Below, one piece after another: positions 6,423-37,126 of a stretch of DNA of 37,126 bases. The translations under genes and the position numbers were made by a program. This DNA is from Thermoanaerobaculales bacterium (lineage in GTDB: Bacteria > Acidobacteriota > Thermoanaerobaculia > Thermoanaerobaculales > Sulfomarinibacteraceae): positions 1 to 37,126 of the forward strand of contig JALOKS010000001.1 of NCBI GenBank assembly GCA_025456385.1, read 5' to 3'. Under the pieces are notes generated by a model. That model saw nothing but the letters and a program-made list of their open reading frames with translations. It had not been told where the DNA came from and did no database searches. The stretch's first letter is position 1, and every line of letters starts with the position of its first letter.

Positions 6423-6590
6423 TCAGGGAAAGGGGAACATCAGCCACCCGAGCAGGGTGCTGCCGACGCTCATGACGAGAAATGTCTTGAGAAACAGGCG
6501 CCGGCGACCCTCGGCCGTCGAACGCCACAGGAAGGCGAAGAACACCGACACCAGCAGAGCGTGCCAGAGCATCAGGAAGAGGTGGTCCAT
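6423..6590 (-). CDS. small hypothetical membrane protein (55 aa)
   Basis: MDHLFLMLWHALLVSVFFAFLW...FLVMSVGSTLLGWLMFPFP gives two predicted TM helices. The ATG lies 1 nt after the stop of the upstream gene. Confidence 0.4.
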   Translation of the reverse strand: MDHLFLMLWHALLVSVFFAFLWRSTAEGRRRLFLKTFLVMSVGSTLLGWLMFPFP

Positions 6591-7550: not shown

Positions 7551-7835
7551 TCACTGCTGCAGGAGCTCTTCCCTGAGGTGCTTGCCCGGCTTGAAGTAGG
7601 GGATCTTCTTCGGTGGCACGTGCACCTGGTCGCCGGTCTTCGGGTTGCGTCCGGTGCGCTCCCCCCGCTGGCGGATGCGGAAGGAGCCGAAGCCGCGCAG
7701 CTCGACCTTCTCGTTCTGCCGGAGGGCCGAGATGATGCTGTCGAAGATCACCTGCACGACCTCGTCAGCCTGCTTGCGCGGGACGTCCGCTGCTTCCGCG
7801 ACCGTGTCCACCAGGTCCGCTTTCGTCATCGTCAT
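7551..7835 (-). CDS. HU/IHF-family DNA-binding protein (IHF-like)
   Basis: MTMTKADLVDTVAE...VELRGFGSFRIRQRGERTGRNPKTGDQVHVPPKKIPYFKPGK is the canonical IHF/HU fold signature. AAGGAG lies 8 nt upstream of the ATG at 7835. Confidence 0.85.
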   Translation of the reverse strand: MTMTKADLVDTVAEAADVPRKQADEVVQVIFDSIISALRQNEKVELRGFGSFRIRQRGERTGRNPKTGDQVHVPPKKIPYFKPGKHLREELLQQ

Positions 7836-7876: not shown

Positions 7877-9634
7877 TCAGGCTCCGTCCTCAGCGTCCTC
7901 GCCCGCGGGCGCCGGGTCCTGCGCCGCCGCCCCTTCCCCGTCGGCAGCGCCTTCGGCGTCCGTGCCGCCATCCTCGACCACGCCGCCCGCCCGCAGCGCC
8001 GCGGCCATCGCGGTCTCGCCTCCGCCCGGGCGTGCCGAGCTCGTCAGCGCCTCGACCGCGCCGTCCTGGTCGATACCGTGCATCGACAGACCGATGCGGC
8101 TCTCGTGCCAGTCGATGCGCAGGATGCGGCACTGCACAGCCTGACCCGTGCTGAACATCTCCGCCAGCGCCAGGCCCTCGTCGCGGTCGATCTCCGAGAT
8201 GTGGCACAGCCCTTCGACCCCGGGTGCGAGCTCGACGAAAACGCCGAAGTCGGTGATGTTGGTGACCGAGCCGGCCACCACGTCGCCGACCCCGTGGGTG
8301 TTGGCGTACTCCTCCCACTCGTTGGGAAGGAGCTCCTTCATCGACAACGAGATGCGTTGGTTGTAGGAGTCGATCGAGGTGATGACCGCCTCGACCTCGT
8401 CGCCCTTCTGCACGACCTCGCTCGGGTGGTTGATGCGCCGCGTCCAGGACATGTCGGAGATGTGCACGAGGCCGTCGACTCCGGGCACGATCTCGACAAA
8501 GGCACCGAAGTCCGTCAGGTTGCGGACCACCCCTTTGATCGTGGTGCCGACGGCGTACGACTCGGCGACCTGCTCCCAGGGGTTGGTCTGGGTGGCGCGC
8601 AGCGACAGCGACAGGCGGCGCTTGTCGACGTCCACCTCCGATACGACGACCTCGACCTCCTGGCCGATGTCGACGATCGAGCGCGGGTTCTTGACCTTCT
8701 TCGTCCAGGACATCTCGCTGACGTGGATCAGCCCCTCCACGCCCTCTTCCAGCACGACGAAGGCGCCGTAGTCGACGATGCTCACGACCTTGCCGGAGAC
8801 CCTCTTCCCCATCGGGTACTTCTCGGGAACCAGGATCCAGGGGTCCTCGAAGCGCTGCTTGTAGCCCAGGGACACGCGTTCGCGCTCGCGGTCGAAGCGA
8901 AGCACCACCACGTCGACCTCGTCGCCGACCTTGAAGTACTCCGAGGGGTGCCCCACGCGGCCCCACGAGATGTCGGTGATGTGGAGGAGACCGTCGAGGC
9001 CGCCGAGGTCGACGAAGACACCGTAGTCGGTGATGTTCTTCACCACCCCGTTGACCAGCTTGCCCTCCTCGAGCCCTTCCATGGTCTCGGCCTTGACCTT
9101 GCCCTGACGCTCCTCGAGGATCGCCTTGCGCGAGAGCACGACGTTGGAGCGGCGGCGGTCGAAGGAGATGATGCGCGCCTCGATCTCCTGCTCGAGGTAG
9201 TCCTCGAGGCGGCGGTTGGGCAACAGGTCGACCAAGGAGCCCGGCAGGAACGCCCGCACTCCGATGTCGACCGACAGGCCGCCCTTGACCCGGTCGAGCA
9301 CCTTGCCCTTGACCGCGGCACCGCTCTTGTAGGCGTCCTCGATGTGCCGCCAGGTCTTGAGCTTGGCCGCGCGGTCGCGGGACAGGCGAACCCTGCCCTC
9401 GCTCTCGTCGAGGCGCTCGACGAAGACCTCGACCTCGTCGTCGACCTCCACCTCGACCCGGTTGGTGTCGGGATCCGTGAACTCGGCGACCGGCACGCTG
9501 CCCTCGCACTTGAAGCCGATGTCAACGAGCACCTCGTCCGCGGTCACGGCGACAACCGTGCCGCGCACGACCTCGCCCTCTCTGAGAGACTGCAGCGAGG
9601 TCTCCATGAGCTGCTCCATGGAAAGCTCGTTCAT
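7877..9634 (-). CDS. rpsA: 30S ribosomal protein S1
   Basis: Six repeated S1 domains (G.VV.G.V...T.FG.FV.L..G..GL.HIS). ATG at 9634 is preceded by AAAGGGGGG. Acidic C-terminal tail. Confidence 0.9.
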   Translation of the reverse strand: MNELSMEQLMETSLQSLREGEVVRGTVVAVTADEVLVDIGFKCEGSVPVAEFTDPDTNRVEVEVDDEVEVFVERLDESEGRVRLSRDRAAKLKTWRHIEDAYKSGAAVKGKVLDRVKGGLSVDIGVRAFLPGSLVDLLPNRRLEDYLEQEIEARIISFDRRRSNVVLSRKAILEERQGKVKAETMEGLEEGKLVNGVVKNITDYGVFVDLGGLDGLLHITDISWGRVGHPSEYFKVGDEVDVVVLRFDRERERVSLGYKQRFEDPWILVPEKYPMGKRVSGKVVSIVDYGAFVVLEEGVEGLIHVSEMSWTKKVKNPRSIVDIGQEVEVVVSEVDVDKRRLSLSLRATQTNPWEQVAESYAVGTTIKGVVRNLTDFGAFVEIVPGVDGLVHISDMSWTRRINHPSEVVQKGDEVEAVITSIDSYNQRISLSMKELLPNEWEEYANTHGVGDVVAGSVTNITDFGVFVELAPGVEGLCHISEIDRDEGLALAEMFSTGQAVQCRILRIDWHESRIGLSMHGIDQDGAVEALTSSARPGGGETAMAAALRAGGVVEDGGTDAEGAADGEGAAAQDPAPAGEDAEDGA

Positions 9635-9739
9635 CCCCCCTTTTCGATTCCCCTCATCGTGCGGTCCCCGGTCCGTGTTCAAGCCTCATCCTCCTCGCTA
9701 GATGCACCCGATTGTGAACCTAGCCTCCGTAATTCCATG

Positions 9740-9768
9740 ACCTTACGGGTTCCCCCGCGTGCTGTCAA
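9740..9768 (-). promoter_or_regulatory. candidate sigma70-type promoter for rpsA
   Basis: Minus strand reads TTGACA (9768..9763, overlapping the cmk stop), a 17-nt spacer, then TAAGGT (9745..9740). This would give a ~100-nt lower-GC leader before rpsA. Confidence 0.4.
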
Positions 9769-10520
9769 GCACCGCCGTCCAAAACCCGTGCGACCTCCCC
9801 GAGGAGGCGTTCGACCACCTCCTCGAGCTCGAGACCGGTGGTGTCGACGACGACCGAGCCGGTCGCGACCTGGAGCGGGCTCTCCGCCCGCATCGTGTCC
9901 TGGAGATCGCGCTGGCGCTGCTGCTCCCGCACCGCGTCCAGGCTCGTGTCGGCGCCGCAACCGCCGAGGTCGCGATGCCGGCGGCGCGCCCGCTCCTCGG
10001 GGCTGGCGGTGAGGAAGACCTTCAGCGTCGCGTCGGGGAGAACGACCGTTCCGATGTCGCGGCCCTCCATGACGCCGCCGTGGAGCTCGCCCAGGCGCCG
10101 CTGCATCGGGACGAGGGCGCAACGAACCGCCGGCAGCGCCGACACCGCCGATGCCATCAGCGAGCAGTCGGCGCTGCGGAGCTCGCGGCTCACCTCCTCG
10201 CCGTCGATCAGGACCCTGGTCCCTTCGGGCCCGACCTCGACGTCGAGCGAGTGGGCCGCCATCAGCTCGCCGATCCGCGCCTCCGCACCGCCCTCGAGCG
10301 GCGGCGTGAGGCCGTCACGGAGAGCCAGGAGGGCGACCGCGCGGTACATGGCGCCGGTGTCGATGTGGGGCACCCCGAGGCGCGCGGCGAGCCGCGCCGC
10401 CACCGTCGACTTGCCGGCCCCCGCCGGGCCGTCGATCGCGACGAGCACGGGCGCTGGCGGGTGGCGACGTACGATCGGGGGCACGGCTCCGGGTCCTTTC
10501 GCGCTCGCGCGACGCGGCAT
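9765..10520 (-). CDS. cmk: cytidylate kinase
   Basis: VAIDGPAGAGKSTVA P-loop, then HIDTGAMYRAV and GRDIGTVVLPDA motifs. The true start may be the GTG at 10484. Confidence 0.9.
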   Translation of the reverse strand: MPRRASAKGPGAVPPIVRRHPPAPVLVAIDGPAGAGKSTVAARLAARLGVPHIDTGAMYRAVALLALRDGLTPPLEGGAEARIGELMAAHSLDVEVGPEGTRVLIDGEEVSRELRSADCSLMASAVSALPAVRCALVPMQRRLGELHGGVMEGRDIGTVVLPDATLKVFLTASPEERARRRHRDLGGCGADTSLDAVREQQRQRDLQDTMRAESPLQVATGSVVVDTTGLELEEVVERLLGEVARVLDGGA

Positions 10521-10580
10521 TGTACCCGGCCGCCACCGATCTTCAAGCCCGCCGTTGCGGCGGCGGGGAACGGTCGGGGC

Positions 10581-11708
10581 TCAGACCCCGCCGCGCACCG
10601 GCCGCGAGCCTGGAGCCCGCGTCGCAGCGATCACCACCGGCACCTCGACCGTGGGTCGCTCGTCGTCGCTGGTGCTGATCCGGACCCAGCCCCGGACGCC
10701 CGCTCCGAGCGCTGCAGCGTCGAGGCCCTCCGGGAGGGCGATCCTCACCGTCTGCTCGCTCGACGCCTCCCGCGACACGGCGCTGGCGACGAGGTGCTGC
10801 GGATGCGAGACCTCGACCGCGCGGATGGCGAATGGACGGCCGCCGTTGTGGCGCAGTCTGAGAAAGGTCGATCGCCCCGACTCGTCCGCGGAGGCATTCG
10901 CCCACATCCGCACCGACGCGGGCAGGGCCTCGATGAGGGGCCGCACCCTGAGCGTGTAGGGGATCTCGAGCGACGGAGCCTCGGGGTGGTCGGTCGTGAT
11001 CCGGACGGCGCCGGAGAAGATGCCCGCCGGCAGTGAGGGCGCTGCCTGCAGCTCGATCGGCACCGCGTCCGGTGCCGGTGGGGCGGGCGGCGCGTCCTCG
11101 ACCTGACCCCATGGGGTCGGCGTTCCGCGGCTCGCGGCCGGCCCACTCTCACCGCCGGCGGCGGCGCCCCCGACGACCAGGTCGAGGCCCTCGCGGTCCG
11201 TGCTCGCCTCGAGAACCCGGAGCGGGCGGCCGTCGTCGCGTGCGAGAAGGAGCCGGGCCGCGCCGCTGCGGCCCTCGATGAGCGAGAGGCTGAAACGGAA
11301 CGCCGGGCTCACCGTCACGGGCATGTGAACGTCGACGGAGAAACGGAGGCGGATCTCGGCCGCACCCGGCGCGTCGGTCGTCACCGCGATCAGCTTGGAC
11401 AGACGCCCGCTCTGGCCCGCTGCGGTCTTGAGCCTCGCGACCAGCTTTCCCGACGAACCCGCCGGGATGACCGAGTCGAACTCGGCCACCGTGCAGCCTC
11501 AGGAGGGCGCGGCCTTGAGGATGCGGACCTCGGAAGGGCTGTCGTTGCGAAACACGAAGGTCGCGGTCGCAAGCTCACCGGCCGTGATGCGCCCGAGGTC
11601 GAGATCGGCCATCTCGACCCGGAACAACCCTTCGCCCCTCTCCTCCTCGCCGGCTGCCACAGACGCCAGCAGCAGCGCGAGCGCGAGCGTTCCGACCGCT
11701 TTCCTCAT
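10581..11708 (-). CDS. exported DUF1573-like protein interrupted by one in-frame TGA (11499..11501): candidate Sec codon or pseudogene
   Basis: ORFs 11499..11723 and 10581..11489 share a frame and are separated only by TGA-GGC-TGC-ACG. The joined sequence has a signal peptide (MRKAVGTLALALLLASVAA) and a DUF1573-type domain ...FVFRNDSPSEVRILKAAPS-[TGA]-GCTVAEFDSVIPAGSSGKLVARLKT. The TGA replaces the first Cys of the family's S-C-G-C-T motif. Confidence 0.6.
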
Positions 11709-11759
11709 GCGTCCCCCAGGCACCGCGCGACCTCGGACGATTGTAGCAGCGGGCCCGCT

Positions 11760-12530
11760 TCAGCCCGCGACGGCCCGCTGTCCGAGGAGCCGCCCGTCGG
11801 TGGCGACCACGAGGCACTCGACCGGCACCGTCCGCCGCGCCCGCCGCACCGCCTCGGTGGCGAGGCGCAGCAACCCGCCGCAGCACGGCACCTCCATGAC
11901 CATGACCTGCAGTGAGCGGATCTCCGCCTCGTCGATCATCGCCACCAGCTTGCCGAGGTAGACCTCCTGGTTCGAGTCGAGCTTGGGGCAGGCGATGGCC
12001 AGCGAGCGTCCCCTGAGGTAGCGGCGGTGGAAGTCGCCGACGGCGAAGGCGACACAGTCGGCCGCCAGCAGCACGTCGGCGCCGCGGAAGAAGGCGGCCG
12101 TCGGCGGCACGAGGTGCAGCTGCACCGGCCAGTGCCGCAGCTGCGAGGTCTGGTCGCCGCCAGCCGCGGGCGGGCCCTCGACCGGTCGCGGCATGAGCTG
12201 CGGCCGCGAGCCCGGACAGCCGAGGTGGGGCTCGGGCTGCGCCAGCACCTGCAGGACCGGGGGCGTCGCCGGCGCTGCCGCCGCGCCGCCGGCTGCGAGG
12301 TGCCGGGCGACCGCAGCCTCGTCGAAGGCGGCGGCCTCGCGGCGGATGACCGTGATCGCGCCCTGCGGACAGTGGCCGAGGCATGCCCCGAGGCCGTCGC
12401 AGTAGGTGTCGCTCACCAGCCGCGCCTTGCCGTCGACGATCGCGATCGCGCCCTCGGCGCAGGCGCTGACGCAGTCGCCGCAGCCGTCGCAGCGCTCCTC
12501 GTCGATGACGATGACGTCCCTGAGCGGCAT
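11760..12530 (-). CDS. 4Fe-4S dicluster domain protein
   Basis: Two ferredoxin-type clusters (CDGCGDCVSAC and CDGLGACLGHCP). Conserved C-terminal region with ADCVAF...IACPKLD...MEVPCCGG. Confidence 0.75.
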   Translation of the reverse strand: MPLRDVIVIDEERCDGCGDCVSACAEGAIAIVDGKARLVSDTYCDGLGACLGHCPQGAITVIRREAAAFDEAAVARHLAAGGAAAAPATPPVLQVLAQPEPHLGCPGSRPQLMPRPVEGPPAAGGDQTSQLRHWPVQLHLVPPTAAFFRGADVLLAADCVAFAVGDFHRRYLRGRSLAIACPKLDSNQEVYLGKLVAMIDEAEIRSLQVMVMEVPCCGGLLRLATEAVRRARRTVPVECLVVATDGRLLGQRAVAG

Positions 12531-12532
12531 GC

Positions 12533-12892
12533 TCAGGCTCCTTTGGGCTCGCGCAGCATCGTCAGCAGCATGCGCGCTCGCTCCGGAGCGTGCAGCGCGT
12601 GCGGCACGCCGGCGGGCATCCGCACGATCTCGCCGGCCCGCGCGTGGACTGCGACGCCGCCGATGCTGAGGTCGAGCGCCCCGTCGACGACCAGCACCAG
12701 CGCGTCGAAGGGAGCGGTGTGCTCGGACAGCCCCTGCCCGCGGTCGAAGGCGAACAGGGTCACGTTGCCGCCGCCGGTCCGGGCGAGGACCCGGCTCACG
12801 ATCGCCCCTTCGGCGACCTCGACGAGTCCGCTCACGGCCGTTGCGCGGTCGGCCGGGAGCTCGATCGGGGCTTGGGACTGCGGTGCGCTCAT
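12533..12892 (-). CDS. cupin domain protein
   Basis: Internal ATG (MSAPQSQ...) preceded by GGAGG. Cupin motifs G.GLSEHTAPFDALVLVVDG and RMPAGVPHAL. Its stop lies 2 nt before the start of the 4Fe-4S gene. Confidence 0.7.
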   Translation of the reverse strand: MSAPQSQAPIELPADRATAVSGLVEVAEGAIVSRVLARTGGGNVTLFAFDRGQGLSEHTAPFDALVLVVDGALDLSIGGVAVHARAGEIVRMPAGVPHALHAPERARMLLTMLREPKGA

Positions 12893-12969
12893 GGTCGTGC
12901 CTCCAGTGGACGATGCCTTGTCACGGCCCCGATGATGACGGCCCGGAAGGCAGGCGTCCTTGACCCGGG

Positions 12970-14235
12970 TCAAGCGCGCGGGTACACGGCCCCGGAGACC
13001 ATCACCCCGACGGTCGCCCCAGGGCGCTCGGCGCGCCACCGGTCCGCGACCTCGGCAGGCCCGGCAACCGGCACGAAGCCCAGGCGGAGGGCGAGCTCCG
13101 GCGCGAGGCCGGAGTGGAGCCGCACCGTGTACCTCCCGGTCTTTTCCACCAGGCGCAGCGTGGTGTGACCGTACTGCACCCAGCCGCGGGCCAGGCGCTC
13201 GGCGATGGCCGCGGGGCTGGGGTCGGCCAGAAAGGGCTCCATCGCGGGCGAGCCGGCGCCGCCGTCGAGAGCGGCGACGAACAGCAGCTCGCCCCCGGGG
13301 GCGAGAAAGCGGCTGGCCGCGTCCAGTGCCTTGTGGGCCTGGATCAGGGTCCTGTCCTCGGGGGCCCCGCCGGCCGCGGCGACCATGAGCTCGAAGGGTG
13401 GTCCGGCCGGGACCTCGAACCAGGTCCGCACCCGCTCGACGGCAGCCGCGAAGCTCTGCTCCAGGGGCCCCGCCGCCGCCCACGCCGTGCCGCCGTCGCG
13501 TCCGCGCACCAGGCACACCGCCAGATCCGGAGGGCGCAGGGCGGCGCCGCGGCGGATCTCCTCCGCCACCGGGTTGCCGACCAGCAGCCCGGGCTCGCAC
13601 CCCGGATGGCGGGCCATCCCTCCGCCGGGCGAGGCGCTCATCACCAGCGCGTGGTTGGCCTGGATCTCGGTGTGCCCGGCGAGCCCGGGGAAGATCATCT
13701 TCGGGCCGCCCCCGAAGCCTGCAAAGTAGTGGTGCCGGACGGTGCCCACCGTCACCAGGAGCCCGGCCTCGACCGCCCGCCGGTGCAGGCGCAGGGGCAG
13801 GCCCGGACGCAGCTCGCCGACCGCGATCAGAGAGGCCTCGTCGCGGCTGTCGTGCTCGATGAGCTCGACCCCGGCCGGAAGCTCGCCGACGAGCTCGCGT
13901 GCGCCCGCCGCGCCGAGCCCGGGGTGGGTGCCGCAGGCCACGGCCACCAGCGTCCGGTCCGCGGGGACGCCGGCCTCCCGCAGCCTGCCCAGGAGCACCG
14001 GCAGGATCCGGGGCAGCTCGACCCTGCGGGTCGCGTCGGGAACCACGAGAACCGCGCTGCCGCGGCCGCGGGCGAGCTCCGCGAGAGACGGACCGCTCAA
14101 CGGGCGGTCGACCGCATCGCCGACGATCCGGGCCGGGTCGCCGCCGCCGGGAGCCGAGGGCGCGAGCGGCCGCACCCGAAGGCCCCGCAGATCGACCGCC
14201 AGCCGTTCCGTGCCGCAGGGCAGCGTGACGATCAC
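12970..14235 (-). CDS. larA: LarA-family (DUF2088) nickel-pincer-dependent racemase/epimerase
   Basis: VPDATR, ACGTHP, and HHYFAGFGGGPK (the Lys-containing NPN attachment region), in a 421-aa protein collinear with lactate racemase. Substrate cannot be inferred. Confidence 0.75.
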   Translation of the reverse strand: MIVTLPCGTERLAVDLRGLRVRPLAPSAPGGGDPARIVGDAVDRPLSGPSLAELARGRGSAVLVVPDATRRVELPRILPVLLGRLREAGVPADRTLVAVACGTHPGLGAAGARELVGELPAGVELIEHDSRDEASLIAVGELRPGLPLRLHRRAVEAGLLVTVGTVRHHYFAGFGGGPKMIFPGLAGHTEIQANHALVMSASPGGGMARHPGCEPGLLVGNPVAEEIRRGAALRPPDLAVCLVRGRDGGTAWAAAGPLEQSFAAAVERVRTWFEVPAGPPFELMVAAAGGAPEDRTLIQAHKALDAASRFLAPGGELLFVAALDGGAGSPAMEPFLADPSPAAIAERLARGWVQYGHTTLRLVEKTGRYTVRLHSGLAPELALRLGFVPVAGPAEVADRWRAERPGATVGVMVSGAVYPRA

Positions 14236-14297
14236 CGCTGCACCATAGCACCCCGAGCGGGACCCGGTTCGGGTGTCGCCGCCGATGGCGACGGAGC

Positions 14298-16250
14298 TCA
14301 GAGCTCGATGCCGAGGACCTGGCGTTGGTACGCGCCGAGGCTCGGGTAGGAGCGGAAGGGCTGACCGCGGGCCGCGTCCCAGTCCGGCAGGGGCACCGCG
14401 ACCGAGGCGTCCAGGATCTTGACCGCGAACAGGCGAAAGGCCGCCCAGAGCTCCTCGCCGCCGACCATCGTCCGCGGGTCGAAGCCGTCGCTCGTCACCC
14501 GCAGGCTGCGCGCGCCGCCCGCCGCTCCAGGCTGATCGAGGAGCAGGTCGAGGACGCCGATCGGTTTCGAGCCGGGCCGCGCCACCACCCCGACCGCCAC
14601 CGCCTGCACCTCCCGCAGGTCGAGCTCGCGGCTGTGGCCGCTGCAGTCAACGCGCAGGAGGTGGCCGTCGAGGGCGAGCGGGACGGCCTCGGTCACCTCG
14701 AGGACTGCGGTCCGCGAGGTGGCCGCCGCCGGGTCCGTTGCGGGCGGCCGGTTCGCCGACGGCCCGGCGGCGCCGCGCACGCGCCCGCCCCGGGCGAGGC
14801 CCCACATCGCCACCTCGAGCTCCGGACGGGCATCCGCCGGGGTCTCGGGGTGCTCGAGCGCGGCGCGGACCATCGCCTCGATGCTCGGCGCCTCGAGCAG
14901 GAGGCCGAGCCGTGCCATGCGCAGCAGCACCGCCGCCGGCGTCGAGGACGACGCGCGCTGCCGCGCGAGCTCGAGGGTCTCGACGGCGGACACCACCCGT
15001 TGCTCCTGGTCGAGGATCTCCGCGATCCGCACCGCCGCCAGCGGGTCGATCGCGACCTCGGGAACGTGGACCAGAACCTCCTCCCAGTGCGAGACCACGA
15101 AGCCCGAGTCGTCGGAGCGGAGCGCGCCGAGGATCGCCCGCACCATCGGCTCCACCGCCCGCGCGGTCTCGCCGTGGGCCACAGCCAGGTTCCAGAGCGC
15201 CATCGCCGCGTCGACATTGTCGGGCTGCTTCGCGACCTCGTGCTGGAGCGCCTCCAGGGCCCCTTCGACATCCCCCGTCCTCGCCTTCGCCACCGCGCGG
15301 TCGACGGCGGGGTTCTCCAGCAGGGTGACCTTGTCCTCGATCGCCTGATGGATGAAGCGATCCTCGATCCGGAAGTGGGCCATCACCGCCGCGAAGACCA
15401 CTCCGAACGCGAAGCCCCAGACGTGGGCCCAGAAGCCGACCCCGCCTCCCCCGGACCTGCGCAGCACCGCGTCCATGGCCTGGGCCGACAGCAGCTGGAT
15501 CCCGAACCAGCCGGGGAGGATCACCCAGGCCGGCGCCTGGAAAGGGCCCACCGGCACGCCCAGCCAGAGGAGGAAGCGGACCTGCGAGCGGAAGTAACGC
15601 ACCAGGAACGCGCCCATCACGCCGGCGATGGCGCCGGAGGCCCCCACCAGGGGCACCTCGAGAGCCGGGTAGCGCACGGCGTACATGAGGCCCGCGACCG
15701 CGCCGGCCGCGAGGTAGAAGGCGACGAAGAGGGGGCGCCCCCAGACGTCCTCGACGAAGGGGGCGACGACCCAGAGCATGAGCAGGTTGAGCAGCAGGTG
15801 GAACCACCCGGTGTGCAGGAACTGGTAGGTGACGAGGTCAGCGGCCTCGAGCCTGACCGGGACCAGACCGAAGCGGTAGAGCAACGACTCCTGCAGGCCG
15901 CGGTGGTAGGCGTCGAGGATGGTGTCGAAACGCCGCTGCTCCCACTGCAGGCGCTCGGGATCCGAGGGCGCCCGGGGGCCGTCGCGCCGCATGTGCTCGG
16001 CGAAAGCGACCGCCTTCTCGTCGCCGAGCTCGATGGCGAAGATCTGCAGGAAGCGCTCGTCGATCTCGAGGTAGGGATGCTGGGTGAAGTACCCGAGAGC
16101 CTGGTGGAGGCGAAGGAAGCCGAGCATCTGCTGCTCGTGCTCGCCCGGCGCCATCAGGATGAAGGTCACCGTGCACGCGACGATGATCGAGAACGTGACC
16201 CACGGCAGCCGGCGCACGCTCGTCTGCTCGTGGCCGAGGGGAATGATCAT
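14298..16250 (-). CDS. rhomboid-family intramembrane serine protease with ~380-aa C-terminal extension
   Basis: ATG at 16250 (MIIPLGHEQ), with GGAGA upstream. Rhomboid core: HTGWFHLLLNLLMLW, catalytic GASGAIAGVMGA, and WAHVWGFAFG (His). The remainder is a soluble helical/TPR-like region plus a terminal beta-rich domain. Confidence 0.8.
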   Translation of the reverse strand: MIIPLGHEQTSVRRLPWVTFSIIVACTVTFILMAPGEHEQQMLGFLRLHQALGYFTQHPYLEIDERFLQIFAIELGDEKAVAFAEHMRRDGPRAPSDPERLQWEQRRFDTILDAYHRGLQESLLYRFGLVPVRLEAADLVTYQFLHTGWFHLLLNLLMLWVVAPFVEDVWGRPLFVAFYLAAGAVAGLMYAVRYPALEVPLVGASGAIAGVMGAFLVRYFRSQVRFLLWLGVPVGPFQAPAWVILPGWFGIQLLSAQAMDAVLRRSGGGGVGFWAHVWGFAFGVVFAAVMAHFRIEDRFIHQAIEDKVTLLENPAVDRAVAKARTGDVEGALEALQHEVAKQPDNVDAAMALWNLAVAHGETARAVEPMVRAILGALRSDDSGFVVSHWEEVLVHVPEVAIDPLAAVRIAEILDQEQRVVSAVETLELARQRASSSTPAAVLLRMARLGLLLEAPSIEAMVRAALEHPETPADARPELEVAMWGLARGGRVRGAAGPSANRPPATDPAAATSRTAVLEVTEAVPLALDGHLLRVDCSGHSRELDLREVQAVAVGVVARPGSKPIGVLDLLLDQPGAAGGARSLRVTSDGFDPRTMVGGEELWAAFRLFAVKILDASVAVPLPDWDAARGQPFRSYPSLGAYQRQVLGIEL

Positions 16251-16351
16251 GCGGTCTCCAGCCGCCTCCAACGTTACTACAGCGGGCGCCCGCCAGAACC
16301 CGCTCGCCTCGGTCCGAGATGTCTCCCGGTACCCCCCGGGTTCCTGCTGCC

Positions 16352-17602
16352 TTAACCGGGCCCGACCTCGCTCCGCAGCCGCTGCGCGAGCTGCAGCAGG
16401 GCCGGGTCGGTCGGGTGGCGGTCGAGGGCTCGCGCGAGGGTGCTCGCGGCCTCGGCGAAGCGGCCCTGGCGGAGCTGCAGCGAGACCAGGCTCGCCGCCA
16501 GCGGCGCGGAGTCCGGCTCGAGCTCGAGCGCTCGCGCGAGCGCCAGCGCGGCGTCGCTGCCGCGGTCCGCCCGCTCCGCGACCCGTGCGATGCGCGTCAG
16601 GAGGCGGACATCCCCGGGCGCCATGCCCCACGCGCGCCGCAGGTGAGCGAGAGCCGTCGGCGCGTCGCCGCGGCGCTCGGCCAGTGTCGCGAGCGCGAGG
16701 TAGGGGTACGGAGAGCCGGGGTCGAGGCGCAGGGCCTCCTGCGCCGCAGCCAGGGCGCCCGCCGCGTCCCCCTCGAGGTCCCGCGCGACCGCGAGCAGAG
16801 ACCAGCACCGCGCGCGCTGGCCGCGCGCGGCCGGGGGCTTCGCGAGCAGTGCCTCCAGGTGCTGTCGCGCCGGGGCCGGGTCACCGTCATCGATCGACCA
16901 CTGGGCGAGCTCGAGCTGCACGGCCGGCGCCGCGGCGAGCGGAGCCAGGACCTGTCGGGCCTCGAGGTCGAGGCCCAGGCGTCGCAGCTCGCCGGCGAGG
17001 GCGAGCGCGTTGTCGACCCGGCGTCGCGGGTAGAAGCTGTCGCGCAGCTCGAGGCCCCGCATCCGGACCCCTGCCTCCTGCCCGGGTGTCAGGTCGACGG
17101 GCGGCGACCGCAGGCCCGGGGCGATGGCCTCGGCGATCGCCAGCTCGGCAAGCGCGGGCTCGACGCGGCCGTCGGCGAGGAGCGTCAGGGCTCGCAGCCG
17201 CCGCAGACCAGGCAGCGAGGGATCGCGGAGGAGCGCCGCCGCCAGCTGCTGCTCGGCCTCAACCACGTCGCCGCTCAGCAGTGCGGAGCGCGCGAGGTTG
17301 GCCGCCCCCACCGGATGGGCGGGCATCCACCGCGCCTGCAGCGACCCGATGCGGCCGAGCATCGGCGCCAGCACCTCCCGCGGGACCTCGCCGAAGTCGC
17401 GCAGCGCGAGGCGGCGGGTGCGCTCGACGACCGGCGGCCAGGCGATCGCTCGCCCTCCGGCGAGCTTCGCCGCCAGCGCCCCGGGGTTCTCGGGCGCGGT
17501 CGCCCGCGCCCGCAGCCACCACCACCACCCCGCGGTGTCGACGCTGAGAACCGCGGCCGCGGCGATGGCGAGGCCGATCCACGCCCGCTTCCCCGGGCTC
17601 AC
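16352..17602 (-). CDS. membrane-anchored TPR repeat protein
   Basis: GTG at 17602 overlaps the murB-like stop (GTGA). N-terminal TM helix (AWIGLAIAAAAVLSV), followed by repeated TPR-like A..L..AL.L.P units. Confidence 0.65.
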   Translation of the reverse strand: MSPGKRAWIGLAIAAAAVLSVDTAGWWWWLRARATAPENPGALAAKLAGGRAIAWPPVVERTRRLALRDFGEVPREVLAPMLGRIGSLQARWMPAHPVGAANLARSALLSGDVVEAEQQLAAALLRDPSLPGLRRLRALTLLADGRVEPALAELAIAEAIAPGLRSPPVDLTPGQEAGVRMRGLELRDSFYPRRRVDNALALAGELRRLGLDLEARQVLAPLAAAPAVQLELAQWSIDDGDPAPARQHLEALLAKPPAARGQRARCWSLLAVARDLEGDAAGALAAAQEALRLDPGSPYPYLALATLAERRGDAPTALAHLRRAWGMAPGDVRLLTRIARVAERADRGSDAALALARALELEPDSAPLAASLVSLQLRQGRFAEAASTLARALDRHPTDPALLQLAQRLRSEVGPG

Positions 17603-18711: not shown

Positions 18712-21700
18712 TCACCCGTCGTCCTCCAGGTCCGTGAGGCAGAGATTGCGGATGTGGTAGAGCAGCACCTGGCGCGAGATGCCGAGCTCGCGCGCCGCGG
18801 CGCTGCGGTTGCCGCCGTGCCGCGAGAGGGCCGCGGTCAGGAAGCGGCGCCGAAAGTCCTGCTGGGCCTGCTCCCAGGTCGCCGCCGGTGCCGGCTCCTC
18901 GCCGGCGCAGGGCAGGTGCTCGGGGCGCACGACGCCGCCGCGCGCCCTGACCATCGCCACCTCGACCACCTGCTTGAGCTCGCGGACGTTGCCCGGCCAG
19001 TGGTACCGGCGCAACGCGCCTTCGGCCTCGGCGCTCCACGACGGCAGTCGCAGCCCGTGGCGGGCGCAGGCCTCGCGCTCGAAGAGAGAGCGCAGGAGCG
19101 GAATGTCCTCGCTCCGCTCCCGCAGGGGCGGGATGAGCACGTCCGGCGCCGCGATGCGGAAGAAGAGGTCGCGGCGGAAGGCGCCGTCCCGCATCCGCCG
19201 TTTGAGGTCGCGGTGGGTCGCCGAAACGATGCGGACATCGACCCGCCGCGCCTGGTGGGCGCCGACAGCCCGCACCTCGCCGGATTCGATGAAGCGCAGC
19301 AGCTTGACCTGGAGCCCGGGGTCGAGGTCACCGATCTCGTCGAGGAAGAGCGTGCCGCCGTCGGCAGCGACCGCCAGGCCCAGTCGTGAGCGGTCGGCGC
19401 CCGTGAAGGCCCCTTTGACCGATCCGAAGAGCTCCGCCTCGAGGAGGCTGCCGGGGATGGCGGCGATGTTGACCGCGACGAAGGCGCCGGAACGGCCCGA
19501 GAGGCGGTGCAGCGCTCGCGCTGCGACCTCCTTGCCGACGCCCGTCTCACCGAGGAGGAGGATCGGAAGGTGGGTCGGTCCGAGCTCGCGCAGCTCGCTG
19601 CGAAGCCACCTCGCCGCCTCCGACACGCCAGCGAAGCCGGTGTCGTCGACCTCGCCGCTCGTCGCCACCCGGCCTCTCGGCAGCACGAGGTCGAGAATGC
19701 CGAGGATGAGATGCCGGACCGGTCCCTCGCTGAGCTCACCCCCGAGCGGAACCACGAGCAGCCGGCCATGACGCATCTCGGGTCCCGGAGGCCCGTCGCC
19801 GTGGCGCCACAGGAGGCTGCGGTCGGCGCCGTCCCGGATTTCGAGCCCTCCCACCCCGAGCGCGGCGAGCAGCGTGGCCGCCTCCGCGGGCTCTCCGCCG
19901 TCGACACCGCCCCTCTCCACGACCCTGGCGAGCGCGGTAACGACCTCCCCCGCGCGGCCGGCGACGCCGTCGCAGGCGTCAGCCCAACCCACCAGCCCAG
20001 CCGCGCGGAGGGTCCGTGCCGCGCGCCGCCGGCGCTCGGGTTCGACCGCCAGCCGGCGTCCGGCGACCCGCTCGGCAAGAACGAGGGCGAGCGCGCCGGC
20101 GGGTGTCTCGACATCGATCTCGACGGCCCCGGCCGCAACCCGACCGCTGTCGGAGGGGCCCGCGAGGAGGGCGGCCGCCTGCGCCACCCCCCACCCGTCA
20201 CCGGGCGCCGCGGGCGGTCGGTCGCCGGCCGCGGCGGCGCTCAGCGCCAGCCACGCCTCGCCCTCCTGACCGGCCCGCCGCAGCAGCTCCGCGGCGCGGC
20301 GCGGGTCGCCGTCGAGCAATGCGGCGGCTCCCCGCAGGAGGCTCAGCCCTTCGTCGAAGCGGGCGTCGCCGTTCGCGACCGTCCGCGAAAAATCCTCCAG
20401 GCGCCGGCGGAATGCGACTTCGTCACCGACGGCGAGCGCGAGCCTCGCCAGCTCGCCCTTCGCGAAGGGGTCCACCGGGTCGAGCTCGAGCAGTCGCTCG
20501 AGCCGCTCCGCGGCCTGCTCCACCCGCATCTGGTCGACGTCGGCGACCGCGAGGTTGAAGAGCGGACCCGAGATGAGGTGCGCGAAGCCGGCCGCCCGCA
20601 GCAGCTGATAAGCGAGCAGATCGTGCCGCACCGCCACCCGGCTCTCGCCGAGAGCGAGGGCCGCGGCACCGAGGTCGAGCTCGAGCATCCCGCGCAGGCC
20701 CGGCCCCATCGGGTTCCGCGCCAGCACCCGCAGCAACCGCCGCGCTGCGGAGGCGTCGCCCCGGTCGATCAGCGCAACCGCCTCGCGGTGAGCCGCACGG
20801 ACCCGCAGTGCGGTGTGCCGACCGGCGAGAGCCCGCGTCGCGCGGGTCCCGGGTCTCCCGCCGGGTGGGTCCGCGAAGAGGAGATCGATCTCGATCCGCC
20901 GCGCGACGAGCTCGCCGAGGCCCGGGCGGCACGCCGCGAGCGCCGCCCGCGGCGGCGCGCGGTCCGCTTCGGGGTTGCAGCGCTGGCCGACCAGCACCAG
21001 GGCCGCCGCCTCGGCTGCCGCTCGCGGCTGTGATCTCGCCTCGTCGAGGGAAGGGACCCGCCGCGCCGCACCCGGCGCCGGGTCCAGGTTGTCGAGCCAG
21101 ACGGTCAGCGCACCGCGACCTGCCGGCGCGACGCCCGCGAGGGCGGTGCGTGCTCCCGCGAGGTCGAGCACGGCCAGGCAGGCTTCGGCAAGCAGCAGCT
21201 GCAGCCGATCGCCGAGGGCTCCGCCGGCGAGCTGCGCCAGGAGCTCCCGCACGAGACCTGAGTCGAGGCGGTCGAGGCTCCCTCTCGCCCACGCCTCGAG
21301 CTCCTCCGCGTCACCGCTGCCGAGGGCCTCATGCAGCAGCCGCTGGGGGCTCCCGGGCGCGTGCAGGGCCGCCACCTGGAGGTGCCGCGGGTCCGCCGCG
21401 AGCGCCCGTGGTTCCGGAAGCCGCCAGCGTCCCTCGGACTCCACGACTCCGAGAAACCGGCGCTGGATCTCCAGATCCGCCGGTGGGAGCGCCGCGTGCA
21501 GCGCGAGAAAGCCGGGCGGCAGGCCGTCCGGCGCCAGCGCCAGCCAGCTCTCCAGGATCGACCCGCCGCTCCCGGCCGCGGGCCCGCCCGGCGGCCGCCG
21601 CCGCGGCGCCGGCGTCAGCCTCCGCAGGAGGCCGTTCGTGAGGGCCCCCCGATCGGCCGCTGCAAAGGGCTCGAACCGCCGCTGCCGGGCGTCAATGAGC

Positions 21701-22602
21701 TCCTGAGCGACCGCGGGCGGTACGCCGGTGATCGCGAGGTTGCGGGGCGAGATCCCCGCACCGGGCGGCGGCGGCTCAGCCGCCCAGCCGCGGGGAAAGA
21801 GCCCCACCGCGACCGCGCTGCAGCCCTCCCGCTGCGCCCAACGGGCCAGTGCGTTGAGCTCTCCGTGCGACAGCCTGCCGACCACGATCAGGGCGCCGTT
21901 CTCCCCCGGAGTCCGCGCCCACCGCTGATCGGCGCCCGGCTCGTCGGCCGCCTCCAACCACGCCGACCGGCCGCGGCGGCGCAACGCGCACCAGAGGGCC
22001 GCCGCGAGCCGCCGCGCCGTCTCCTCGGGGGGGACCCGCCACTGGTGGAGATCGCCCTCAGCCGGCAGCGGCAGAGGGTCCCACCGGAGAGCCCAGAGCG
22101 CCCGGGCCGTCAGGGGGTCGAGCGATCCTCCCAGCTCTCGCAGCTGTCGTGCGAGCGCGCCCTCGAGGGACAGCCCGGGCTCCGCCCGGTTGCCGTCGAG
22201 CTCCCCCGGCGGGAGCCCGGTGGCGCGCGCGACCCGATCGATGACCGCAGCACGGGCGGCCTCCATGGCGCCCTCGCCGCCGCCGAGGCGATCGAGGAGC
22301 GGCGACAGCGGGCACGGAAGGCGGCCGAGCACCGCCCGCACGCCCTCCTCGCAGCGATGCAGCCGGAGCCCGGCAAAGGCCGCGCGGCCGAGCCAGAGGT
22401 CGAAGTCGCTCAGGAGGGACGCGGCCGCCGTCAGCTGGACCGCGGCGCGGAGGCGGTCCCGGCGCGACAGCGAGGCGGCGTTCACCGCGCGACGGGTGGT
22501 TGCCGTCTCCTCGGCGACGAACGGGGCGAGCCGCGGCAGGGGTAGGCTCGGGTGCTCGACCAGCAGGGCCGCAGGCTCCGGTATCCGCACGTCCCTACCC
22601 AT
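18712..22602 (-). CDS. sigma54-dependent transcriptional activator (bEBP) with very large non-canonical N-terminal region
   Basis: C-terminal AAA+ sigma54-interaction module: GETGVGKE (Walker A), VKGAFTGA (GAFTGA loop), LFLDEIGDL (Walker B), [16 protein letters not shown]. Fis-type [22 protein letters not shown]. About 950 preceding residues are Ala/Leu/Arg-rich and helical, with no receiver, GAF or PAS signature visible. ATG at 22602 overlaps the aroA stop by 8 nt; the alternative start is 22665. Confidence 0.85.
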
Positions 22603-23872
22603 CCCGCGCGCCCGCCACCAGCCCCTCCCAGGCGGCCCAGAAGCCCGGGAAGGACTTGCCGACACAGCTGCCGTCGTCGACCGTGAGAGGCCCCGCCGCC
22701 AGCGCTGCGACCGCCATCGCCATCGCCACGCGGTGATCGCCCGCGGCGGTCACCGGGCGCGCCGCACCGCTCTGCCGCCGGAGGGGCGAGGCGACGGTCA
22801 GCGCCGACTCCCCCACCTCGAGGACCGCCCCGAGCCCGCGGAGGTTGGCGACCATCACCGTGAGTCGGTCGCTCTCCTTGTGCGCCAGGTTGCCGAGGCC
22901 GGTGAGACGGGAGCCCGGCGGGGCGCAGGCCGCCACCACCGCGAGCGCCGGGAAGAGATCGGGCGTGCTCTCGAGGTCGGCCGCAATCGGGTCTGCGACC
23001 GGCCCGCTCGCCGAGACCCACTCCCCCTGCCAGGCGCACCTGAGACCGGCGGCGGCGAGCACCTCCAGAACCGCACGGTCGCCCTGCCGGCTGCGCGGGT
23101 CGAGAGGGCCGACGGTGACCCGACCGCCGGTGACCGCAGCAGCCGCGAGCAGGAACGCGGCCGCCGACCAGTCACCCTCGACCGTGAGGGTGCTCGGGCG
23201 CAGCCCTCCGGCAGGCACCTGCCAGAGCCGCCGGTCGGCGCTCGCCACCACCTCCGAGCCGAAGGCGCGGAGGACCTCGCTCGTCAGGTCGAGGTAGGGT
23301 GCGGAGGGCAGGGGACCGGCCACCTCGAGCTCGAGCCCCTGCTGCATCAGCGGCGCCGCCAGCAGCAGGGACGAGACGAACTGTGAGGACAGCCCGGGCC
23401 GAATCGCGGCTCGCCCGCCGGCGAGCCGGTGGCCCTCGACCGTGGCCGGCAGAAAGCCGCCCGCGGCCTCGATCCGCGCCCCGAGAGCCCCCAGCACCTC
23501 CAGCAGGGGCGCCATCGGGCGCTCGCGCAGGCGCGGGCTGCCGTCGACGGTCGCCCGGCCGGGAAGCGCCGCGAGCAGCCCCAGGATCAGGCGCGCGCCG
23601 GTGCCGGAGTCGGCGAGATCGAGAAGCGGCCGCCCGGCGGGGGTCGAACGTCCGCCGACGGTGACCTCGTCGCGCCACTCCACGGGCCAGCCGGCAGCGG
23701 CCAGGGCCGCGGCGAGGACCCGGGTGTCACCGCAGTCCAGCGGCCGGCGGATCCTGCCTCCGCCGGCGGCCGCCGCCGCGATCAGCGCCCGGTTGCTGAT
23801 GCTCTTGGAGCTCGGGACCTCGACCGCCGCGTCGAGCTCCGCGTGCGGTCCCGGGAGCTCGCGCGGGATCAC
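22595..23872 (-). CDS. aroA: 3-phosphoshikimate 1-carboxyvinyltransferase (EPSP synthase)
   Basis: [44 protein letters not shown] and [11 protein letters not shown] motifs. GTG at 23872 overlaps the upstream stop (GTGA). Confidence 0.9.
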
Positions 23873-36179: not shown

Positions 36180-37126
36180 TCAGGCGTCGCCGAGACGCGC
36201 CGCGAAGGCGTCGAGGATCCGCAGGTAGGGCTCGATCGACGGGATGAAGTGCCGCTCGTCGCGCGCGTGCGGGCCGATGCCGGTCTGGCCCCAGACGACC
36301 TGGTTGCCGCCCGGGGCGAAGCGCGCCGAGGAGCCCGGCAGCTTCCTGCCGACGACCGCCGGCGAGCCCGAGACCTCCGCCACCGCCGCGAGCAGATGGT
36401 GCAGCCAGGGGTTGTCGGGCGGGCAGGCGACGCCGGGCTCCATCAGCTCGACGGTCGCGGCGAGGCCGAGCTCGAGGCACAGGGCGCGGACCTCGGCGAG
36501 GAGGCCCTCGAGATCGTCGCCGGGGATCGGCCGCACCTCGACGCCGAGCACCCCGGTGCCGGCCGTGATGTTGTAGACGCCGGCCTCACCGACGGAGAGG
36601 AAGGGGAACCGCGTCGAGCTCTCCCAGCCGTCGATGCTGGACAGCGTGAGGTGGCGCGCGAAGACCGAGCCGAGAACCGCGCGGACCTCGATCAGGCGGT
36701 CGAGGAGGTCGGCCGGGCCGCCGGCGGTGCCGGTGTGACCGCAGGCGCCGCGGGCCTCGATCCTGAGCCGGAGGATGCCGCGGCTCTCCGGGCACACCGC
36801 GCCGAAGAGCTCGCTGCCGCGCTCGCCGGTCCGCTCGCCCACCACCAGCAGCTGCGGGCTCCAGCCCCGCTGCAGCGCCTCGGCCGCGAGCACGTGCGGG
36901 GTGCCGAAGGGCTCGCCCTCGCCGTTCTCCTCGTTGCCGACCAGCAGCAGGTTGAGGGTCGGGAAGGGCGGTCCCGCCGCCGCCCGCCGGGTCATCCAGA
37001 CCATGTCGCTCGCCACCACCGTCTTCATGTCGGCGGCGCCGCGCCCCCACAGGTACTCGCCCTCGACCCGCGGCTCGAACTGACGGTCATCGGGCTCGGG
37101 GCGGACGACGTCGAAGTGCCCGCACA
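36180..37126 (-). CDS. M20-family metallopeptidase (ArgE/DapE/acetylornithine deacetylase-like), 5'-partial
   Basis: The frame stays open upstream of the track's ATG to the window end. It reads GHFDVVRPEPDDRQFEPRVEGEYLWGRGAADMK (M20 metal and catalytic motifs), followed by LVGNEENGE. Confidence 0.8.
   Translation of the reverse strand, partial: CGHFDVVRPEPDDRQFEPRVEGEYLWGRGAADMKTVVASDMVWMTRRAAAGPPFPTLNLLLVGNEENGEGEPFGTPHVLAAEALQRGWSPQLLVVGERTGERGSELFGAVCPESRGILRLRIEARGACGHTGTAGGPADLLDRLIEVRAVLGSVFARHLTLSSIDGWESSTRFPFLSVGEAGVYNITAGTGVLGVEVRPIPGDDLEGLLAEVRALCLELGLAATVELMEPGVACPPDNPWLHHLLAAVAEVSGSPAVVGRKLPGSSARFAPGGNQVVWGQTGIGPHARDERHFIPSIEPYLRILDAFAARLGDA

Follow-up and report, generated by a model that had tools for sequence, protein, structure and literature searches.

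Locus and reading frame

The 37,126-nt stretch of DNA analyzed here (the window) comprises positions 1 to 37,126 of the forward strand of contig JALOKS010000001.1, from the genome assembly GCA_025456385.1 of a Thermoanaerobaculales bacterium. On its minus strand lies a gene encoding a protein with a DUF1573 (PF07610) domain, and within this gene a TGA codon occurs in frame at the position where relatives encode the first cysteine of a C-G-C motif. A preliminary description made from the sequence had proposed either a candidate selenoprotein or a pseudogene. Our analysis indicates that this is very probably a genuine selenoprotein gene, with UGA codon 70 recoded as selenocysteine (Sec, U), and that it belongs to a DUF1573 selenoprotein family that is already known. 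The features of the locus and its surroundings are collected in Table 1.

Table 1. Positions of the features discussed, in window coordinates; nt numbers count from the U of the UGA codon
Feature	Position	Strand	Remarks
Full precursor gene of the probable DUF1573 selenoprotein	10581..11708	-	375 codons plus terminal TGA stop (10583..10581); Sec would be residue 70
In-frame TGA, probably read as selenocysteine (U70)	11499..11501	-	First position of U-G-C; basis, orthologue conservation and alignment with Cys
Predicted N-terminal signal peptide	11646..11708	-	MRKAVGTLALALLLASVAAGE; read from the sequence as a basic n-region plus hydrophobic core
DUF1573 (PF07610) immunoglobulin-like (Ig-like) domain	11334..11618	-	Pfam profile match, residues 31-125; spans the TGA
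C-terminal ~245 residues	10584..11321	-	No Pfam match; two further beta-sandwich (Ig/ASH-like) domains predicted
Block of suppressed synonymous variation	11448..11486	-	Candidate extent of the selenocysteine insertion sequence; codons +5 to +17 past the UGA
Hairpin 1	11467..11489	-	nt 13-35; core stem GCCGAG/CUCGGU, nt 16-21/27-32 (11486..11470)
Hairpin 2	11449..11466	-	nt 36-53; stem CCCGGC/GUCGGG, nt 36-41/48-53
Genes on the low-coordinate side	1 to ~10,500		rodZ-like, prsW, ribF, MiaB/RimO-type radical SAM enzyme, lpxB, DUF6677, HIT, HU, rpsA, cmk
Genes on the high-coordinate side, part 1	~11,760 to window end		4Fe-4S protein, cupin, LarA-like, rhomboid, TPR, murB, sigma-54 activator, EPSP-synthase-fold protein
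Genes on the high-coordinate side, part 2	~11,760 to window end		Class-V aminotransferase, 2-hydroxyacid dehydrogenase, DUF1015, MFS, M14 peptidase, PGM/PMM, AIM24

Reading the minus strand from either of two possible start codons to position 10581, the frame is interrupted only by the TGA at 11501..11499, and the translation around it is ...EVRILKAAPS-TGA-GCTVAEFDSVIPAGSSGKL. The GTG at 11723 opens the longest open reading frame (ORF), but the ATG at 11708 is the more likely start, because gene callers applied to contigs 99.7-99.9% identical begin there, giving a 69-residue fragment with the N-terminus MRKAVG. In the ORF listing of the window the locus is divided into ORFs of 74 (11499..11723) and 302 (10581..11489) amino acids. 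This is exactly the division that the preliminary description expected of an ORF caller, and its statement that the two parts lie in frame with only the TGA between them holds on the single open frame of the minus strand. The same split, into fragments of 69+302, 70+302, 72+313 and 77+294 amino acids, is found in the public annotation of near-identical contigs and of related ones.

The GC content at third codon positions (GC3), taken in the same frame, is 0.84 before the TGA and 0.89 after it, so that both parts look coding. TGA terminates 15 of the 23 confidently coding ORFs of the window, including the DUF1573 gene itself at its own terminator, and as an ordinary stop codon it has therefore not been reassigned in the genetic code. 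The window as a whole is 72% GC. Several neighboring genes also share a frame across a TGA, among them HU/HIT at 7551 and a small ORF/lpxB at 6423; inspection showed these to be normal gene boundaries and not further candidates for Sec.

Conservation of the TGA codon

Searching the protein database with the joined protein gave 18 close homologues of 38-92% identity, every one of which begins just after the TGA site. Public callers have therefore cut all of them at the same place. The orthologue set was drawn from the DNA of these homologues and of further relatives; the site is covered in 19 distinct loci, from metagenome-assembled genomes (MAGs) of Thermoanaerobaculia/Acidobacteriota. The homologous codon is TGA in all 19 loci, and in none is it TGC or TGT. 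It lies in the context [S/G]-TGA-G-C-[T/A]-x-A-E-[F/Y/H]-D-S-V-I-P. Both the N-terminal section of ~70 amino acids upstream, which includes the signal peptide and the N-terminal half of DUF1573, and the C-terminal part are conserved in frame throughout the set. Compared in pairs, the orthologous proteins are 38-96% identical in amino acid sequence (median 46%), and their genes have GC3 values between 0.67 and 0.90.

The preliminary description had called for just such an alignment, and also for a check of the sequencing reads at the TGA. The alignment gave conserved protein on both sides of an invariant TGA, with no decay downstream. In place of reads we turned to independent assemblies, and the TGA is kept in each of three whose copy of the gene is 99.65-99.9% identical to that of the window. 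Near-identical contigs occur in GCA_025490995.1, GCA_025491015.1 and JGI 3300037524, and among the related MAG sequences are GCA_964546965.1, GCA_964565045.1 and two contigs of 0.8-0.9 Mb, CAWGLE010000013.1 and CAWAUY010000004.1.

One orthologue, at ~8930..14930 of CAWAUY010000004.1 (locus L009), carries a premature stop ~105 codons past the Sec codon. The matches to Fer4, cmk and rpsA in this locus are fragmentary too, and the premature stop looks like the product of assembly indel errors rather than of gene decay.

Read with Sec at the TGA, the motif of the window protein is S-U-G-C-T. In three homologues with cysteine at this position, P0019, P0020 and P0021, a C-G-C is aligned with the U-G-C, and the earlier claim that the TGA falls exactly at the first cysteine of the DUF1573 C-G-C motif is borne out. 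P0019 is labeled as a Thermoanaerobaculia DUF1573 protein and has 345 amino acids, with the same three-part architecture. We considered it as the positional Cys orthologue of the window gene, and rejected it on account of a different genomic context; it is a homologue, not a syntenic orthologue. Within the orthologous group every member found is the Sec form.

A conserved RNA element downstream of the UGA

Selection on the RNA was examined by aligning the 19 orthologues codon by codon, with entropy calculated over conserved columns of fourfold or sixfold degeneracy. Shortly after the UGA there is a block in which synonymous variation is suppressed. The mean codon entropy is 0.31 bit inside the block (n = 8) and 1.50 outside (n = 57), with Mann-Whitney p = 4e-6. 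Within it Ala GCC, Glu GAG, Asp GAC and each of two separate Ser UCG codons are present in 19/19 orthologues. Val GUC, Ile AUC and Pro CCG occur in 18/19, Gly GGU in 17/19, Gly GGA in 15/19 and Ala GCA in 15/18. GCA, GGU and GGA are non-preferred codons that have become fixed in GC-rich genomes, which indicates selection acting on the RNA.

Exactly within the low-variation block, RNAalifold predicts a pair of neighboring hairpins. Hairpin 1 has 6-10 bp, a loop of 3-5 nt and ΔG of -9.0 to -13.7 kcal/mol across all 19 orthologues. Its loop in the window is UUCGA (11480..11476), beginning 18 nt past the UGA; among the orthologues it takes the form YWYGA (UUCGA, UACGA, CACGA or CAUGA), with G at position 4 only. 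Hairpin 2 follows directly on the 3' side, with 6-8 bp, a loop of 4-6 nt and ΔG of -8.0 to -13.2 kcal/mol, again in all 19. Each of its six pairs is kept in 18-19 of the orthologues. The loop (11460..11455), with the window sequence GGGUUC and the consensus NGGUNN, begins at nt 42, 38 nt past the UGA; G43 and G44 never vary, and U45 is kept in 17/19.

Folding of the 42-62 nt after the UGA gives z = -2.6, and 2-3 of 200 shuffled sequences fold equally well. The one Cys homologue examined retains only 2/6 and 3/6 pairs of the two stems.

A 10-bp hairpin at 11490..11466, with its loop 18 nt past the UGA, had been put forward in the preliminary description. This stem is present in the window, and conservation among TGA-containing orthologues, named there as a check on it, is found for the 6-bp core in 19/19 and for the next two outer pairs in 18/19. 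The remaining outer pairs are not conserved, 15-33 being present in 13/19 and the outermost, 12-36, in only 6/19.

Comparison with known SECIS elements

In bacteria, Sec insertion requires a selenocysteine insertion sequence (SECIS), and a published consensus for bacterial SECIS elements (bSECIS), which gives the bSECISearch rules, sets four of them: a loop of 3-9 nt on a stem of 4-16 bp, a G at loop position 1 or 2, a distance of 16-37 nt between the UGA and the apical loop, and a minimum free energy (MFE) of no more than -7.5 kcal/mol (PMC13188914, Fig. 2A). A subset of bacterial selenoprotein genes falls outside this model (PMC13188914). In all 19 orthologues both hairpins lie within the limits for loop length, stem and MFE. 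Hairpin 1 departs from the model only in lacking the loop G, and hairpin 2 only in its spacing of 38 nt. The spacing noted in the preliminary description is thus compatible with a SECIS, but the consensus loop G is absent from the hairpin it described, and the second conserved hairpin, which adjoins the first on its 3' side and has a GGU loop, had been overlooked.

The SECIS of E. coli fdhF (NC_000913.3), like the element in the window, lies within the coding sequence, as a stem-loop that follows the UGA immediately on the 3' side. Its apical loop, GGUC, begins at nt 22, 18 nt past the UGA. This spacing equals that of the hairpin 1 loop, and the G-G-U is shared with the loop of hairpin 2. Unlike in fdhF, spacing and GGU loop are found here on two different hairpins, and we identified no equivalent of the bulged U.

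By the standard bacterial route, a ribosome arriving at the UGA would be served by SelB carrying Sec-tRNA(Sec), recruited by a SECIS just downstream. At this locus the SECIS would be the conserved block, nt +16 to +54, with its two adjacent hairpins, and SelB could contact either of them. We offer, as a tentative possibility, that this block represents a distinct, bipartite class of SECIS, in which a spacer hairpin would occupy the canonical position and a SelB-binding GGU hairpin would be stacked immediately behind it, 38 nt from the UGA. It would serve an exported redox or metal-binding U-G-C protein that contains Sec obligately and is specific to a Thermoanaerobaculia clade.

The encoded protein

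For profile searches the TGA residue of the joined protein was replaced by Cys. The match to Pfam DUF1573 scores 54.9 bits (E = 8.9e-15), above the gathering cutoff of 26.1, and the alignment places residues 31-125 on profile positions 3-96 of 98, running straight through the junction. The leader points to a product that is predicted to be exported, and an equivalent hydrophobic leader is present in the orthologues. In the most divergent of these (L003, 118..351) the leader contains a lipobox-like LLAGC (LAGC), which suggests a lipoprotein form, whereas the signal peptide of the window protein is plain and contains no Cys.

The alignment with the Cys homologue P0019 extends over the full length, the C-terminal region included. 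The AlphaFold2 model of P0019 comprises three beta-sandwich domains, with a mean predicted local distance difference test score (pLDDT) of 84.6, and the C-G-C (residues 73-75) lies in a turn of domain 1, between strands 64-71 and 75-80. If the window protein folds in the same manner, two beta-strands of its domain 1 would be joined by a tight turn containing the U-G-C. Foldseek searches with the P0019 model matched only HYDIN/ASH-type and other tandem Ig proteins, together with a P. gingivalis protein of unknown function; these generic tandem Ig/ASH matches gave no functional lead. A sequence search of the PDB found no match, and we found no biochemical data on any DUF1573 protein.

Closely spaced Cys and Sec residues have precedents in redox chemistry. 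The CGC peptide acts as a mimic of protein disulfide isomerase, and mammalian thioredoxin reductase contains the motif GCUG. By analogy with such CXC and vicinal Cys-Sec motifs, the two chalcogens of U-G-C, one Gly apart, could within an exposed turn close a strained selenenylsulfide ring with a redox or metal-binding role. Unlike in those redox proteins, the fold here is predicted to be an Ig/ASH-like beta-sandwich. Judged by the motif, the U-G-C would most likely be a redox (selenenylsulfide/selenol-thiol) or metal-binding center located outside the cytoplasm. One gene would give rise to an exported, three-domain, Ig-like DUF1573 protein in which U-G-C replaces the C-G-C of its relatives.

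Alternative explanations

Since TGC becomes TGA by one substitution, the window alone would be compatible with a nonsense mutation or a sequencing error in an ordinary C-G-C DUF1573 gene. We reject both, and consider them extremely improbable, because the TGA is kept in all 19 orthologues, down to 38% identity, and in the three independent near-identical assemblies. There is no decay of the frame on either side, the high GC3 and the DUF1573 match run on across the site, and no orthologue has TGC or TGT. The choice left by the preliminary description, between a Sec candidate and a pseudogene or error, thus falls strongly on the side of Sec. If instead the TGA were a true stop and the 302-residue ORF were translated separately from the GTG at 11489, there would be two genes, as annotated in every public assembly. 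GTG is indeed present at the restart site in 11 of the 19 orthologues, but the other eight have GTC, GTT, GTA, GCA or CTG, and the division would cut a single beta-sandwich domain mid-way at the conserved C-G-C. For these two reasons the proposal is weak. The downstream piece would moreover have no signal peptide, and the frame relation of the two pieces is constant in all the orthologues, so that we regard two separate genes as very unlikely.

The UGA might also be read, or used, with no involvement of selenium. The hairpins could promote decoding of this codon by a near-cognate tRNA, for Trp or Cys; another possibility is that it acts as a regulatory termination switch. In keeping with this, neither hairpin individually conforms to the strict bSECIS model, and Sec-decoding machinery was not encountered in the DNA surveyed (see below). 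Yet were Cys needed at this position, a single mutation would create the fully efficient TGC, and TGC occurs in no orthologue. The position is moreover already documented as Sec in the DUF1573 family, the loop of hairpin 2 contains the G-G-U of SelB ligands, as in the GGUC of E. coli fdhF, and the phylum Acidobacteria is recorded as having selenoproteins (PMC1794560), at the phylum level only. Read-through of this kind appears distinctly unlikely.

A number of results weigh against a selenoprotein gene, or against the RNA element as we describe it. Taking the four bSECIS rules together, neither hairpin satisfies them alone. The two-hairpin structure received no support from a covariation test, with one compensatory change and shuffled alignments reaching the observed score in 113/500 cases; the covariance analysis suggested in the preliminary description thus carries no information on the hairpin, because the stems are invariant. 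In the window sequence the MFE fold consists of one long stem, in competition with hairpin 2. We rejected this stem as the conserved structure; its lower pairs 2-47, 3-46, 6-43 and 12-38 are present in only 6-10 of the 19 orthologues, and it leaves the constraint on nt 48-54 unexplained. Rfam gave no match at gathering level in the whole window, and at 11380..11560 a search at E <= 10 returned only chance-level matches (E >= 0.05), far below gathering. The joined protein matches the NCBIfam model NF041425, 'OS_HP2 family (seleno)protein', over profile positions 8-97 of 98 with 51.5 bits (E = 1e-13), short of the curated cutoff of 100 bits; it is related to this model but lies outside NCBI's narrow OS_HP2 subfamily.

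Finally, searches for selA, selB, selD and tRNA-Sec in the 37-kb window and in ~236 kb of related loci found none of them, in a sample too small to count as a negative. ARAGORN detected no tRNA of any kind, and so no tRNA-Sec, in the window and 15 loci, and tblastn with E. coli SelA, SelB and SelD gave no match in the window and the fetched loci (236 kb). Pfam annotation of 20 further ORFs of the window identified housekeeping genes only, and no sel genes. In the literature we found no paper linking Thermoanaerobaculia with selenocysteine.

Genomic neighborhood

The order LarA-like, cupin, 4Fe-4S (AF_0155 domain), Sec gene, cmk, rpsA is found in almost all of the orthologous loci, the regions compared being 11760..14235 and 7877..10520 of the window together with L001, L002, L005-L012 and L015-L017. 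The neighboring genes are 61-99% identical, compared with ~40-50% for the selenoprotein. The stop of the 4Fe-4S gene (11760) and the ATG at 11708 are only 51 nt apart, and co-transcription of the two genes is therefore possible.

In several lineages the selenoprotein gene is followed immediately downstream by a convergent radical SAM gene, located between it and cmk (L006, 10919..12922, minus strand; L003, 1296..2858, minus strand), and there is a gap of ~1.6 kb in L008, L012, L015 and L017. This gene is absent from the window, L001 and L002.

Locus L005 (DATIVB010000056.1) is labeled as a Chondromyces sp. MAG. Its gene order is that of the Thermoanaerobaculia MAG L002, and its neighboring genes match those of the window at very similar identities (63-88%). 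The label is probably a taxonomic error, and the case of L007 ('Deltaproteobacteria bacterium') is similar.

Elsewhere in the window, murB and the sigma-54 activator were assigned from synteny with L001 and L002. The latter is an ORF of 1317 amino acids at 18712..22665 (minus strand), and has ~1290 amino acids in those two loci. An ORF of 836 amino acids with a rhomboid domain lies at 14298..16808 (minus strand); relatives have ~650 amino acids, and the true start is probably internal. A record look-up for the ORF at the window edge (36180..37028) gave no match.

Relation to the known family and significance

The preliminary description had not recognized DUF1573 as a described selenoprotein family. 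On this point it was mistaken, since the family has been in print since 2007 and has its own NCBIfam model, NF041425. A study of an Olavius symbiont metagenome introduced OS_HP2 as a new selenoprotein family (PMC1976440, Zhang & Gladyshev 2007), and the Global Ocean Sampling (GOS) analysis of 2008 lists it with pfam07610 and a UxC motif (PMC2398784). DUF1573/pfam07610 selenoproteins with a UxC/UGC motif appear also in the reviews PMC9312934 (2022) and PMC13188914 (2026). The window protein belongs to this class as the literature describes it, with Sec placed first in the UGC of a pfam07610 domain and Cys in homologues. It shares with the OS_HP2/DUF1573 selenoproteins both the Pfam domain and the position of Sec, and those proteins, likewise, have many homologues with C-G-C. 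Unlike OS_HP2 as defined, which came from deltaproteobacterial Olavius symbionts, the window protein has 375 amino acids and three domains, and comes from Thermoanaerobaculia-type Acidobacteriota. A further difference is that its orthologous group consists entirely of Sec forms among the members found.

What is new here is modest. It comprises an all-Sec orthologous group in Thermoanaerobaculia-type MAGs, the three-domain architecture, and a two-hairpin RNA element with sharp limits, which as a single hairpin falls outside the SECIS consensus. No new class of biology is opened. For annotation, the locus is given as two ORFs of ~70 and ~300 amino acids in every public assembly examined, where the correct product would be one selenoprotein precursor of 375 amino acids. 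We conclude that a group found exclusively in the Sec form is very probably to be added to a selenoprotein family without known function. The locus also provides an unusually clean case of an RNA element exposed by the loss of synonymous variation, and could help to refine models of the bacterial SECIS.

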